From Eledone cirrhosa (taxonomy: Eukaryota), in the NCBI GenBank assembly GCA_964016885.1, contig OZ024743.1, forward strand, positions 225,556,001 through 225,620,000: a stretch of 64,000 nt of DNA. Direction: 5' to 3'. A program made the position numbers and the translations under genes. A model generated the notes under the pieces. The model saw nothing but the letters and a program-made list of their open reading frames with translations, searched no databases and was not told the origin of the DNA. Below are positions 5,723 to 51,420 of the stretch, in pieces; positions within the stretch are counted from its first letter, which is position 1; each line of letters begins with the position of its first letter.

Positions 5723-6077
5723 TTAATATGGTGCTCAGGTGAAAACTTACTAGATGAACCAGAGCATTAAACACTGTAGTCCTAAAAGGATGTGATTGTC
5801 AAAGTTGGGATAGCTATTCTACTTAGTTAAGGCTGACTTGTGACTAAACAATACTACCATCAAGTTAAAGTGTACATCTACATATGTATACGGAAGTACT
5901 AGTATGCATATAAATACACACATGTATACATATGTACATGTACCGAGTTTTTCACTAGACACTTTACAGTGAGTGTCCAGCTAGTCTGTATGTAAACAAA
6001 CAGACGAACCGGGTTTTAAAGTCATACGAGTTTTCAAGGAAACACACTTCCTCTATTCTCCAGAGAGCCAGACAGGA

Positions 6078-6120
6078 ATATTGGACTAGTTTCGATGTTA
6101 TTACATCTCATCAGCAATAT
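6078..6120 (-). ncRNA. type I hammerhead ribozyme, copy 1
   Basis: Minus-strand RNA: AUAUUG-CUGAUGA-GAUGU(AAUA)ACAUC-GAA-ACUAGU-C^CAAUAU. Full catalytic core, 5-bp stem II, palindromic ACUAGU stem III, GUC cleavage between 6084/6083. Confidence 0.88.
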
Positions 6121-6518
6121 ATACCTATCTTCCGGCTTCTCTGGAGTTTTCTATGAAAATCAGTAGTGGGCAGACTAATTTGCATAGAACGTGAGTCATT
6201 GTACGCACCGGTTCAGCGGAAACGATAAAAACAAATAACGAAACGAAATTAAATTTTGTTTCGCTTCTAACTCACTTTTGTATGACTGACGCTTAAACAA
6301 TTAAGTTAAAGTGTACATCTACATATGTATACGGAAGTACTAGTATGCATATAAATACACACATGTATACATATGTACATGTACCGAGTTTTTCACTAGA
6401 CACTTTACAGTGAGTGTCCAGCTAGTCTGTATGTAAACAAACAGACGAACCGGGTTTTAAAGTCATACGAGTTTTCAAGGAAACACACTTCCTCTATTCT
6501 CCAGAGAGCCAGACAGGA

Positions 6519-6561
6519 ATATTGGACTAGTTTCGATGTTATTACATCTCATCAGCAATAT
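6519..6561 (-). ncRNA. type I hammerhead ribozyme, copy 2
   Basis: Identical to copy 1, 441 nt away; cleavage 6525/6524. Confidence 0.88.
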
Positions 6562-6959
6562 ATACCTATCTTCCGGCTTCTCTGGAGTTTTCTATGAAAA
6601 TCAGTAGTGGGCAGACTAATTTGCATAGAACGTGAGTCATTGTACGCACCGGTTCAGCGGAAACGATAAAAACAAATAACGAAACGAAATTAAATTTTGT
6701 TTCGCTTCTAACTCACTTTTGTATGACTGACGCTTAAACAATTAAGTTAAAGTGTACATCTACATATGTATACGGAAGTACTAGTATGCATATAAATACA
6801 CACATGTATACATATGTACATGTACCGAGTTTTTCACTAGACACTTTACAGTGAGTGTCCAGCTAGTCTGTATGTAAACAAACAGACGAACCGGGTTTTA
6901 AAGTCATATGAGTTTTCAAGGAAACACACTTCCTCTATTCTCCAGAGAGCCAGACAGGA

Positions 6960-7002
6960 ATGTTGGACTAGTTTCGATGTTATTACATCTCATCAGCAAT
7001 AT
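6960..7002 (-). ncRNA. type I hammerhead ribozyme, copy 3
   Basis: Intact core; one substitution (6962) creates a mismatch in stem I; cleavage 6966/6965. Confidence 0.82.
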
Positions 7003-8689
7003 ATACCTATCTTCCGGCTTCTCTGGAGAATTCATCATAAAACTGCAACATTTGAGTGGATAAAATTTCAAACAGTTGGTTTATTGGCAATATTTAACCC
7101 TTTGACATCAAACGATCTGAAACTACCCATGCTTCTATGACACAAACCTTCCATCATAATTTTATGTAAGAACTTTTGTTAATTTATATTTCAAAAATAA
7201 AGATATCATAAATAAAGAGAATGTTAATTATATTAATTATAATAAAAATTTCATAAATACAGAGAATGTTAATTATATTACTAAATCCACCCAACTTCTA
7301 CATTACCTTATATACTCAAATATAAGTCGGACATCCCACCCACCCCATTTTATGTCTGAGAAATGAGCAAAAATTTAAACTCTGAAACCACTAATTAACT
7401 AATTATATTTGGATGGCATGGTTTTGAAATTCTCATGAATATAAAATATATCTATGAAGTTTTAATATTTTGATGTTTAAAATGTTTTAAGCATAATTTA
7501 GAATATAGTGTTTGTTTCACAACTTCATTCTGTAACGCTTCTTTTTTTTTTTTGCCATTTTATCTGTTTTATAATGTTTCAACAAGTTTCTCAAATGTTT
7601 GTTTACTTCCTGGCAGTCATATGCTAGGAGTACTTTGAAAGCAAGAGATCAAATAAGAGAACTTTGTATAGGGATTCATAGAGTAGAAGAATGAGGGAGA
7701 GAGAGCAAGTTAAAGAGAGGAGAGGCAGAGCAAGAAAAAGAGTGGACAAGAGGGAGAAGGGACAGAGAGTGAGAGCAATAAAACAAGCCAGAAGTAAGAT
7801 TTCAATCTTGCGTAAGATTGAAAGAAAAAGTATTATTATATCTGAGAAAAACGTGTGTGCATATAGGTATGTGCATGCATATATGTGTATGGAACATTTA
7901 TGTATTAAAAAGTTCAAATTATAAAAGTTTCTTGGCTTATATATGTGTGTATATGATTCTTTCAAAATTAAATCATAGTTTGTATCTGTCATTATAAGTA
8001 TGGTAATGAAAGGTTTAAGAATCTTATCAATGGTTCCATGTAGCTCCACTCAGTCTGAAGATACATATTAAACCTTATCATCTTGTTACCTAGCTTTCAT
8101 TTATCATAAAAACTGTTCAGAAACTTAATAAAATCAAGAAACAGAGAAATCAATTAGTCAATTAGAAGATATTGATCTACACTCAGTTGCTATAACTTTA
8201 TCCCCCATGTGTAGTCATATTTCCCAATAAAATATATGATAATAGTTTACACTCCTTTTTCTCAAATGTTCAATAGATGTTCATAATTGAATGATGATGA
8301 CAATTATAATAGTAGCCTACATTGACCAGCCAATTAAGCCCATAGATTGTGTTTCGATTTACACATCTTCACTGTTGTTATTTTCAATCAATTACAGGGA
8401 CCATATTTCTACAATGAATAGTTATTTGGCTAGAATTCTCTCTGAGGAATCAAAATAAATAATAGACTACGGTTTGTGGCCATATCAAGAGAATCATCTA
8501 ACTAAATAACAGTTCTTATTTAAACGTCATCTAGAAAACTGGAAAGACTCAAGACAGAAGAAATAACTGGAAAATAGCATGTATCTAAGCAATCAGATCA
8601 AATACTTTGAAGAAGGAAAAGAATTCTCTTTAGAGTAATTATAATTCTTCCTGCAAAAATAAGTAATCATCACCATCATCATCATCATG

Positions 8690-11150: not shown

Positions 11151-12131
11151 ATAATAATGGTGAAGATGATGATGATGCTTGAGGAGGGTATGTAACAAAA
11201 AAGATGATGACGATTACGTCAATAAAATGAAAACAACAGTGATGACAATGGTGATGATGGGGACGTTGTGTAATCAATACTGTAACTAAGGAGTGTTTTG
11301 ACTAAAAAAAAAAAAATTAATCAAGGTCAAGTCAATAAAAAAAAATAAAAAAAAAGCAAAGATGCCAAACAAAAGAAGATTAATATCATCAGCTCCTTCA
11401 CTCCATCAGTGAGAGATCAGAAAAGTTTGCTGATTTTAAACTAATCTCTATAGATTGCTGAGTACCAGTTGACAGTCAGTCAGTCGGTTAAGTTAAGAGA
11501 GAGAAGACTGATTTCAACTATAATATAACTATAATATAAACATATGTGTAGGCATGGCTGCTTGGTTAAGGAGTTTGATTTGTAATCATATGATTTGGGG
11601 TTCAGTCACACAGTGTGGCACTTAGGGAAAGTATTTGCTACTATCACCATCATCATCCTTTTTACATCCATTTTTCCACACTTGCCTGGGTTAAATGGGT
11701 CCTTTTCAGCACAGCAGCTGTCCACATGCCACAATTCGTCATCTCCACTGTGAGTTTGAATGATTTGAGATCAGCTCTCACCACCTCTGCCCAAGTCTTC
11801 CTTAGCATTCCTCTACTACTACTACTAAATACATATATATATATAGTAATAATAATAAATGTGAAGATCCCGTTAAGGGTGAAAGCAGCGATTCTTTGCT
11901 TAAACTTTAATCTGTTATTTTAATAAATATATATATATCAGAGAGGGTGTGGTAAGATACCAGTTGGACCATAACCCACCAGAGTACTCGATACTTGGGT
12001 TAGTAGAATGGGTAATATGAAAAGATTCAGGACCCCGACGGCTGAACTCCGGCCATTTCGATAGCTAGAACTGAACTGTTCGGATATAGCTGTCGTAATG
12101 GCCAGAGCTCAGCTGTCAGGATCCTGAATCT

Positions 12132-12175: not shown

Positions 12176-12680
12176 ATACTTTGGGAGGGTCATGTTGCCA
12201 ATAAGAAACACACTCACCAGTTGCTTTCACTTCAATTTATTATAAATTAAATTTATAAATTTAAGAATTTATAAATTTCCGGTTGGTTGGTTGGTTCCAC
12301 AACCGGACGGTTGTTCATATATTGTCAAAGTTCTTTCGTCACACATTCTATGACCTCTTGTCACACACAAAAACAAGATGGCATAGGACAGAACAAAGGA
12401 GAGGCACAAAACAAAGAGAAGAATCCTCAGTCACTGAAGAGGTCACAGAATGTGTGACGAAAGAACTTTGATAATATATGAACAACCGTCCGGTTGTGGA
12501 ACCAACCAACCAACTGGAAATTTATAAATTCTTAAATTTATAAATTTAATTTATAATAAATTGGAGTGAAAACAACTGGTGCGTGTGTTTCTTATTGGCA
12601 ACATGACCCTCCCAAAGTATAATAATATCGGTTTCAACACTCGTTTTCAGATAAAGAATCTTGCTAAACAAATTCACAAA
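12171..12680 (+). mobile_element. non-autonomous Penelope-type element with inverted pLTR
   Basis: 12171-12358 is an ~190-bp inverted copy of 12437-12623. Flanked by (TA)n; carries a hammerhead at 12430-12472. Confidence 0.7.
12430..12472 (+). ncRNA. minimal type I hammerhead ribozyme (family 2)
   Basis: GUCA-CUGAAGA-G-GUCACA(GAAUG)UGUGAC-GAA-AGAACU-U^UGAU. Sister copies show stem III AGAGCU and palindromic AGCGCU. Confidence 0.6.
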
Positions 12681-38700: not shown

Positions 38701-38747
<47 letters not shown>

Positions 38748-38849
38748 ATAATAATAAATTTGAAGACTAAAATCCAAAGAGGGCTCGATATGGATAAATA
38801 TATATCAAATATATAAGAACCGTAGAGCAAATATTTATTAAAAAAACAT

Positions 38850-39130
38850 ATTAAAGTTTAAGCAAAGAATCGCTGCTTTCACCCTGAACGGGATCTTCTG
38901 AAACTAACAAAGTCAATCTGTGAACGCAGAAGTGAATATTTCAAAAAACGTTCCCTGGCAAAGAACGTTTTTTTTTCGTTCTTTGCCAGGGAACCAAAGT
39001 ATCGTCTTCCTGTCTTCCTCCGGTTGCAATGTTTTTTGAAATATTCACTTCTGCGTTCACAGATTGACTTTGTTAGTTTCAGAAGATCCCGTTAAGGGTG
39101 AAAGCAGCGATTCTTTGCTTAAACTTTAAT
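38850..39130. repeat. ~280-bp palindrome (arms ~90-100 bp) with nested hairpin; Penelope-like pLTR relic
   Basis: 38850-38950 is the reverse complement of ~39030-39130; the arm also occurs at 11860-11915; (TA)n flanks. Confidence 0.7.
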
Positions 39131-39148
39131 CTTTTATTTTAATATATC

Positions 39149-49456: not shown

Positions 49457-49645
49457 ATGGTGAATTGGCAGTATCGGTAGAGGGTTGGACGCCATGCTTT
49501 TTAGCATAGTTACGTCCCTTTACGGTCTGAGTTCAAATCCCCTCGAGGTTAACTTTGCCTTTCATCTTTACGGGGTCGATAAAATAAAGTACCAATAATA
49601 CACTGGGATAATTGCTGGCCTTGTGCCAAAAGTAGAACAATTATT
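49457..49645 (+). mobile_element. SINE family 1 inserted at the Penelope 3' end
   Basis: Family 1 head, core and tail. Confidence 0.75.
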
Positions 49646-51420
49646 TATATTTGATTTTTTTTGGCTGATGATAATGGTCTCTTTAATTCTTATATTGCTT
49701 ATATTCCTTTCTGTCACCTCTATATTGTCATCAATGTCCTGGCTTCGGTATTTGTCAAAATGTTTTTTAACACAAGATGCTCTTGTAGCCATATGCTTCT
49801 TGGTCCGTATCTGTAGTCTCCGGATGGTTCTTTCGATGTATGAGATGCTACATTGTTTTGCATGTGATCTTATAGACCACATATGCTCTCGTGCACACTT
49901 TTGCACTGTTGATGGGATAGTTAGGAAGTCTGCACGTATCGCTGTATATAGGTTGGTGTCTGAGGAAGCAGTCTGCTTAATGGGGGTCCCGAGTGCGCCA
50001 GCTGTATATTCAGTCCCTTCCTACGGAAAGCTTGTCTGATAGCAGCTGTCGCCTTCTCATTGAAATGTGGCAGCTTTATGTAGCATATGTTATCTTTGGG
50101 GGTACGTGTCCTCCTTGTCATTTTAAGTGTTGGTTCCTTGGCATTTAGGTGTTTGGTGAGAGAAGTAGGGTAGCCTTTTTCAGCAAGAACTCTCTGGAAT
50201 TCTATCATGCTGGTATGTCTGTCGCTACCTTGGCTGCATCTGCAGGTAGATCTCGTTCTATATCTAGGCCATTTTGGTTCTGTAGGGAAGGGCAGAGTCA
50301 TGGTGCTCAAAATTGCCTCTGCAAGCCTCCTTCTTGTAAACTTTGATGTATATATGGATCCCTCCTTTGTGACTCTTAGTGTCTGGGTGCTCAAACTCAA
50401 ATTTCATGTGTGCATCTACGTTTTCTAAGATGTTGTAAACCTTGACGGCTCCTTCACATGATGAAGTGAGAATAAGGATATCATCCACGTACCTGGAGAA
50501 GAACGAGCATGAGTGGCAGGTGGTAAGTGTTGTGCACTCCAACTGGTCATGTACATGATGGCCAGCAGGCCTGAAAAACTTGCCTCCATCGGAAGTCCTT
50601 AAATTTGTTTGTAGACAGAACCTTCAAACTAGAAAAAGATGTTGCACACAACAATAGAGAGCAGCTTGAGAATGTCATCAGCAGTGAGCCCAAAGCAATT
50701 GAGGTCGGTAGAGGCGATGATGTTGTCTGTAATTAAGTCGCTGGCTGGCGAGGCAGGGTCAGAGATGTAGTGGCAAACTACGTCTAAACTAAATGGATAT
50801 CTATTTTGTCGAAGTATGGTGGGTGTCAAGTTCTTTTAGCCTGTTGACTATTTCTTGTGAGCATCTATTTGTACGTGGTAAGTGTGAAGAAGAGGTTTGA
50901 GCAGTCTGGAGAGAAGCCAGGAAATTTTATAGAAAGGACCGTTTAGCCAGAAACAATGGGTCTAATTTTTAATTTGGGTCTTGTTTTATGTGTTTTGATG
51001 AGAAGGTAGAAGGTGGGGAGCTTAATGTTTCTGGTGATAAAGATGCATTTTATTCTACTAAGGAGGCTTCTGCAGTTACATATATTAGTCTAGCTGGTGT
51101 TAATGGTGACCTCTAGCTGGCTAGATTTGATGTTTTTGCTAACCTTACTATATAGAGTTGTGTTGTTAAGGTATTCTATTGCTAGTTGTATGTACATGTT
51201 CTGCTCAATGATGCAGAATTATCTCCCTTTGTTTCATGGGAGGTTTATTAATGTTTTTTAACTCAGTTCCCTTAAAGAGAGATTATGGAAGGGGGAAGAA
51301 TACTTCTGTAAGATCTTGAAGATGGAGTTCTTAAGTCTAGTTAGTTTGGCATTAAGTTCATGGTTGGTGGAAGAGGTTTGTGTGGGTATCTGGGTGGATT
51401 ATATAGAGAGAACCAAAGTT
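49646..51420 (-). mobile_element. Penelope-like retroelement (RT + GIY-YIG), decayed
   Basis: Minus strand: FYLLIKTHK, RPIV, FSLDV, GLPM, SRYVDDIL, GYP, then C..YIERTIRRLQIRTKKH (GIY-YIG); many frameshifts. Confidence 0.8.

Follow-up and report, generated by a model that had tools for sequence, protein, structure and literature searches.

Three head-to-tail repeats on the minus strand of a stretch of the Eledone cirrhosa genome (the window, 64,000 nt analysed at full length) each hold a putative hammerhead ribozyme. This raises the question of what kind of element they represent, what moved it, and which form of its RNA was copied.

A slightly damaged array in the window

An earlier reading, made from the sequence alone, had described at 5862 an array of nearly identical, CpG-rich 441-bp units devoid of open reading frames, and in these respects it holds up. 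TRF reports a tandem array at 5862-7028 with a period of 441, 2.6 copies and 99% matches; units 1 and 2 are identical, and unit 3 differs from them at 6909 and 6962. The longest stop-free frame is 65 codons, GC content is 37%, and CpG is undepleted (38 observed and 39.7 expected, an o/e of ~0.96 as against 0.47 for the whole window). The insertion extends 4 nt past the TRF array, to 7032, these last nucleotides (AATT) being family sequence. CATC is present on both flanks, and the target is not TA. The features of the locus are as follows.

5862..7032, minus strand: whole insertion, a 5'-truncated array made up of unit positions 182-470 followed by two rounds of 1-156 plus 186-470 (numbering of the 470-nt family unit)
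6744..7032, minus strand: 5'-most partial unit, 289 nt, whose first bases, AATT, belong to the segment that the other two have lost, with private changes at 6909 and 6962
6303..6743, minus strand: middle 441-nt unit, with a private 29-nt deletion (junction 6588/6587)
5862..6302, minus strand: 441-nt unit at the 3' end, with the same sequence as the middle one, ending at about family site 1 (position 470/1), outside (TA)n
6666..6743 (second copy 6225-6302), minus strand: family 'tail' (unit 1-78), between two putative reverse-transcription start sites
6313..6384 (also 5872-5943 and 6754-6825), unstranded: AT-rich imperfect palindrome of each unit; in sister family B it is purely (TA)n
6940..7028, minus strand: hammerhead hairpin 3, core 6996-6966, predicted cut 6966/6965, A-C mismatch in stem I
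6499..6587, minus strand: hammerhead hairpin 2, core 6555-6525, predicted cut 6525/6524
6058..6146, minus strand: hammerhead hairpin 1, core 6114-6084, predicted cut 6084/6083
5858..5861, plus strand: CATC, 4-bp direct repeat (left copy) that may be a target-site duplication
7033..7036, plus strand: CATC, right copy of the 4-bp direct repeat

The 441-bp period is peculiar to this locus. Copies across the E. cirrhosa genome have a unit of 469-471 bp, and the 441 nt once taken for the family monomer result from a private 29-bp deletion whose junction has two exact matches in the 3.0 Gb genome, both in the window. The missing 29 nt correspond to a hairpin of the family unit, and the breakpoint coincides with the base of the hammerhead stem. 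The idea that the array ends exactly at this stem base was therefore right about the breakpoint, but it is the locus-private deletion that places it there, and the element itself reaches 7032. The copy starts at unit position 182, within the segment deleted from the other two units, and its template thus likely carried a normal unit; a 441-nt circle as the template of this copy was rejected on the same ground. Units 1 and 2 both carry the deletion and a rare change at unit position 46, and one of the two private changes of unit 3 breaks a stem I pair. In the simplest history, a partial dimer would have inserted at a non-TA site, the 29-nt hairpin would then have been lost, and one 441-bp period would have been duplicated. 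The window locus is one slightly damaged, atypical copy of an abundant 470-base repeat.

Within the tail segment (unit 1-78) of the window copy lie a hairpin and the sole T5 run of the unit. We also note that the non-TA 3' flank (5841-5861) contains an 8-nt match to the family site-1 sequence, 9 nt from the junction, possibly reflecting microhomology-aided priming.

Predicted type I hammerheads

The three type I hammerhead cores are on the minus strand, with CUGAUGA starting at 6996, 6555 and 6114 and predicted cuts after 6966, 6525 and 6084, exactly as first proposed. All of them match Rfam Hammerhead_HH9 (E-values of 6e-6, 6e-6 and 1e-4), although at 30-34 bits they fall under the 52-bit gathering score. 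That each unit has a complete hammerhead is correct as regards the three cores but needs qualification for the third, which reads CAACAU and so has an A-C mismatch in inner stem I (6962). The long stem I and the palindromic stem III were both correctly recognized: the former has 19 predicted outer and six inner base pairs, and the latter consists of two pairs around UA within ACUAGU.

Motifs with a short palindromic stem III have been described as requiring a dimer (PMC4209133) and, by analogy, cleavage here would likely occur only as a double hammerhead, which might release unit-length RNA that could circularise. In a preprint on Xenopus retrozymes, one of the nine dimers tested cleaved (10.64898/2026.07.22.740005). 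The predicted energies are -74.6 kcal/mol for the double hammerhead, -74.0 for two monomers and -77.4 for the minimum-energy dimer; as modelled, nearest-neighbour energies neither favour nor exclude a dimer-dependent double hammerhead. The predicted minimum-energy fold of the monomer pairs GCUG with UAGU, hiding the core, and the natural 470-nt cut-to-cut monomer is predicted to be strongly structured (z -9.3).

Stems I and II covary, as had been anticipated: among 16 hand-picked hammerheads, which amount to about three related subfamilies and hence to a few independent events, 7 of 15 pairs are changed on both sides and 94.6% of cells are paired, compared with 31-48% in slid controls. The count of both-side-changed pairs does not exceed what shuffling gives (182 of 500). 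In 10 of the 16 rows, moreover, one pair of stem II is not formed. When a flank-only pattern was used, the core was kept in 97 of the first 100 matches, many from shared arrays; core invariance is partly built in by how the hammerheads were picked. An apparently lower mutation rate of the core (0.42% versus 1.15%) was rejected because most loci had been chosen by the core. Rfam matches to miRNA families are far under threshold and have their source in the AT palindromes of the units.

A young, dispersed family

The exact 31-nt core occurs 1,463 times in the genome and never in the reversed control, and is thus not a chance motif. The flank-only pattern has 9,076 matches (control, 0), and cores with an ACUAGU stem III number 40,405 as against 19 in the reversed control, implying ~40,000 hammerheads or, by estimate, roughly 19 Mb if each represents one unit. 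When the best 40 of 1,076 candidates from the animal's own genome were examined, they gave 142 DNA matches on many chromosomes. Copies of the family found in the window (family A) are young, with a median divergence of 2.1% from the column majority, subfamily differences included, in agreement with the dispersed young arrays that had been predicted. Two sister families are colinear with family A, C at ~89% and B at 62-65% identity, and across the sister families the cut triplet is GUC, GUU or GUA.

There are arrays of between 15 and more than 37 units, and the long ones show higher-order repeats, which indicate growth after insertion. One array of at least 37 units with higher-order repeat structure (G000:C1:95620987-95639300) is a retrozyme turning into satellite DNA; another, at C1:5738326-5752444, has ~31 units. 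No open reading frame belonging to the repeat was found within arrays at 60 loci. As to features of a tRNA-derived SINE, four loci yielded no tRNAs, and there was no match to a Pol III B-box. The word 'ribozyme' has no match in the main text of an O. vulgaris repeat annotation.

Two fixed end sites within the unit

To the 33 chromosome-1 loci taken in positional order from the exact-core list we added 27 best-hit loci, giving 60 mapped loci; L087 and L103, complex or cut off, were omitted from the end counts. The 52 arms of the chromosome-1 loci have their 3' ends at unit 73-79 (27 arms, site 2) or unit 1-10 (22 arms, site 1), with three elsewhere, and 44 of the 49 on-site ends are followed by TA-rich DNA. 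Head-to-head two-arm copies account for 21 of these 33 loci: 18 combine site 1 with site 2 and three have one off-site end. All 18 classable copies therefore have one end of each type (P ~3e-6 if sites were drawn independently), as do 28 of the 29 classable two-arm copies among all 60 loci. The 5' ends of arms, by contrast with these fixed 3' ends, are uniform over the unit (chi-square P 0.73). Sites 1 and 2 are 68-74 nt apart in family A, and sister family B has two equivalent end sites ~59 nt apart.

This anatomy is the one seen in Penelope-like elements (PLEs), for which partial tandems, an inverted 5'-truncated arm, a tail at one end and a microsatellite bias have been described (PMC8557442). 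In vitro, the tail of a Penelope-like element is set by two neighbouring internal sites from which its reverse transcriptase (RT) starts; the enzyme uses unprocessed RNA, and the hammerhead is dispensable (PMC11167929). The two fixed internal ends and the one-of-each inverted arms constitute this Penelope-like 'tail' signature, and Penelope-type mobilisation, suggested at the outset, gains support from the one-end tail, the inverted 5'-truncated arms and the (TA)n targets. At one locus (L018), ~20 nt of the left flank are the reverse complement of sequence past the right-hand TA tract, an inverted target duplication.

The RNA template

Linear monomers released by cutting do not usually serve as template, since 45 of the 52 arms cross the predicted cut by more than 10 nt and 5' ends do not pile up there, a single one of 52 lying within 5 nt of the cut (1.2 expected). 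The arm 3' ends, moreover, lie 170-245 nt upstream of the cut. The strict form of the cycle first put forward, in which ribozyme-cut linear unit monomers are themselves reverse-transcribed, is on these counts, and on the uniformity of the 5' ends, highly improbable, even though every unit has an intact core, the stems covary, and monomers and circles have been shown for coral, mussel and axolotl retrozymes (PMC7229834). It is largely ruled out unless the RT jumps precisely between monomers; its circular form survives.

Units and both arms of a locus are mostly of one haplotype: 12 rare alleles are common to all copies across inverted arms and 114 are restricted to one arm, and divergence is 1.2% within arms, 2.7% between arms (raised by one compound locus) and 4.1% between loci. 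Some loci, L013 among them, mix subfamilies between adjacent units, which is unlike the product of a single circle. The haplotype data are compatible with a circle, and also with an uncut multimer whose source array is homogeneous; we lean only slightly towards an uncut read-through multimer over a re-closed circle.

Candidate helper elements

The genome is rich in elements that combine RT and GIY-YIG, as seen from 10,596 GIY-YIG candidates, the best 150 of which were scored, and from Pfam matches. Three PLE families of 713, 714 and 719 aa carry the Hydra-clade motifs RWK/RWR, DKT/NKT, CxCX5C, CxxC and CxH. The 713-aa Hydra-type family follows the one-of-each end rule in 16 of 17 inverted pairs and has a tail of 91 nt. 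In the 714-aa Hydra-type family the ORFs are intact (best copies 98-100% identical), the pLTR holds a hammerhead-like motif, and two end sites flanked by TA lie ~66-73 nt apart, a spacing that is the closest match to the 68-74 nt of the retrozyme.

Further observations concern these elements. The Hydra-clade-like PLE families with intact ORFs, three in number, are found at L155-L190 (e.g., G000:C516:18221-20320), and copies of the 714-aa family (L171-L182) have a second, diverged hammerhead-like segment ~400 nt past the stop codon. A first look at the 713-aa RT gave 39,526 candidates, far above the 'small number' of families reported outside cnidarians.

Among the matches listed for 73 PLE loci, no sequence homology between the unit and PLEs was found apart from TA-like stretches and retrozymes inserted separately; for the 713-aa family, the comparison with family A consisted of reading two of its 16 loci by eye. 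The Neptune-like, Hydra-like (713, 714 and 719 aa) and GC-rich Neptune-like families were each rejected as parent, as none shares the unit sequence.

At 2 of 14 extended 5' junctions, a retrozyme arm and a Neptune-like PLE truncated at its 5' end stand back to back, and the outer end of each is in TA. These retrozyme/PLE fusions (L192 2356-4336 and L191 2520-4989) are possible chimeric insertions. In L192 the PLE arm is 0.4% and the retrozyme arm 0.7% from column majorities (the comparators being best hits), ages compatible with a single event; in L191 the PLE arm is 3-5% from the closest relatives compared and the retrozyme arm 0.7%, which favours sequential insertion. One could imagine circular RNA being copied by a Penelope-like RT dimer, with the two ends of a single cut (TA)n target primed at two different sites and the L192 and L191 junctions as single chimeric events that name the helper. 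We regard this as rather unlikely; if true, the genome itself would directly prove the life cycle proposed for retrozymes, and would do so for a superfamily that counts ~40,000 ribozymes.

Other features of the window

A short inverted two-arm remnant of the ends of the 713-aa Hydra-type element lies in TA at 38742-39147, with one site-1 and one site-2 end, and a related piece lies near 11863. Further hammerhead-like cores at 12434, 30645 and 39340 (plus strand) probably derive from other PLE-type repeats; several more minimal-hammerhead repeat families occur in PLE flanks. At 49640-51015 (minus strand) is a decayed PLE RT/GIY-YIG fragment, with ~38-47% identity to the L061 element. Elsewhere in the window, the long open frames are presumably transposon remnants or simple repeats, and no host gene or promoter was found in the 64 kb.

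A model for mobilisation and its alternatives

The repeat is very probably a non-coding 470-nt non-LTR retrozyme with a predicted type I hammerhead, likely moved in trans by a Penelope-like RT/GIY-YIG protein. This reading follows from the fixed 3' ends at unit 1-10 and 73-79, the (TA)n targets, the random 5' truncation, the inverted arms, the lack of an ORF and the covarying stems. The helper protein would cut (TA)n, and both DNA ends would prime cDNA at the two internal sites of an RNA that runs uninterrupted through the ribozyme, be it an uncut read-through multimer or a re-closed circle. The two cDNAs would then join at their truncated ends, and some arrays may grow later by unequal exchange.

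The end architecture is identical to that of autonomous elements, and the unit might therefore be the pLTR of an autonomous Penelope-like element yet to be found, the arrays being truncation products followed by local amplification, of which the higher-order repeats of long arrays are an instance. An origin of retrozymes from pLTRs has been argued for Xenopus (10.64898/2026.07.22.740005), and there is room for a rare parent, the best 40 of 1,076 DNA-search candidates having been scored. Yet units are joined head to tail, and at none of the 60 family loci does an ORF lie between or behind same-strand units; an ORF with RT and GIY-YIG flanked in sense by the unit was likewise found at 0 of the 60 loci examined. 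The PLE matches near family loci belong to neighbouring elements, of which two abut the family copy in the inverted orientation, and we consider such a parent improbable. Least probable of all is that a satellite or a helitron/MITE-type DNA repeat spreads at the DNA level and carries the ribozyme as a passenger, or that the window locus is an assembly artefact. In favour of these explanations are the higher-order structure of arrays that hold 15 to more than 37 units, and the identity of window units 1 and 2; against the former, terminal repeats are absent, and the fixed 3' ends, random 5' ends and inversions are marks of retrotransposition, while an artefact is at odds with the differences in unit 3 and the 4-bp repeat on the flanks.

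Relationship to known systems

Metazoan non-LTR retrozymes have already been described (PMC7229834; bioRxiv 10.64898/2026.07.22.740005), and judged by its sequence the family conforms to their definition. Two or more successive units of its tandem non-coding repeats each hold a type I hammerhead, it has no coding capacity, no LTR and a low GC content (37%), and it is a dispersed multicopy family with marks of retrotransposition. The one-end tail, the inverted 5'-truncated arm and the microsatellite target are those expected of PLE-mobilised copies. The proposal of a retrozyme-type family is thus upheld by non-coding tandem units, dispersed copies, covarying stems and the lack of an ORF of its own. 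It is likely a new family within a known class: no cephalopod retrozyme appeared in the literature searched, an entry in the supplements of PMC7229834 or the preprint, or in Repbase/Dfam, being possible.

The family resembles the retrozymes of Cervera & de la Pena 2020 (PMC7229834) and of Li, Clavereau & Pollet 2026 (the preprint) in its head-to-tail non-coding units of <45% GC, one type I hammerhead per unit, thousands of dispersed copies and co-resident PLEs, and its 470-nt unit falls in the 51-972 bp range of the preprint. Unlike those retrozymes, in so far as the two sources describe them, it ends at two fixed internal positions, targets (TA)n and has inverted arms. Self-cleavage and RNA circles are predictions for the Eledone family. 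The core and topology align over the full model of Rfam Hammerhead_HH9 (RF02275, clan CL00010), but the window cores stay below its gathering score (30-34 versus 52 bits) and have a stem III of only 2 bp.

Compared with the hammerheads of EN+ PLE pLTRs (PMC4209133; PMC8557442), the family shares the short stem III with a palindromic loop predicted to need a dimer, as well as the partial tandems, inverted 5'-truncated arm and one-end tail of EN+ PLEs (PMC8557442). Its (TA)n bias is as in Neptune, Hydra and Naiad PLEs (PMC8557442). It differs from EN+ PLE pLTRs as described there in lacking an ORF and in having a tail of ~70 nt rather than 30-40, and none of the co-resident PLEs examined is homologous to it in sequence. 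Poseidon PAc of Anolis (PMC11167929) is autonomous, with its start sites in the ORF, whereas the repeat here is non-coding; PAc is reported to show no strand difference in start site in vitro, whereas two-arm copies of the family almost always have one of each.

The mover of animal retrozymes and its RNA template have so far been argued from co-occurrence and pLTR similarity. Here, a young family with a clean Penelope two-start-site signature lies beside intact, near-identical Hydra- and Neptune-type ORFs, and its significance comes from this clean mobilisation footprint and the testable helpers, not from the window locus. It makes testable which protein starts cDNA at unit ~1-10 and ~78, and whether a circle or an uncut multimer is preferred.
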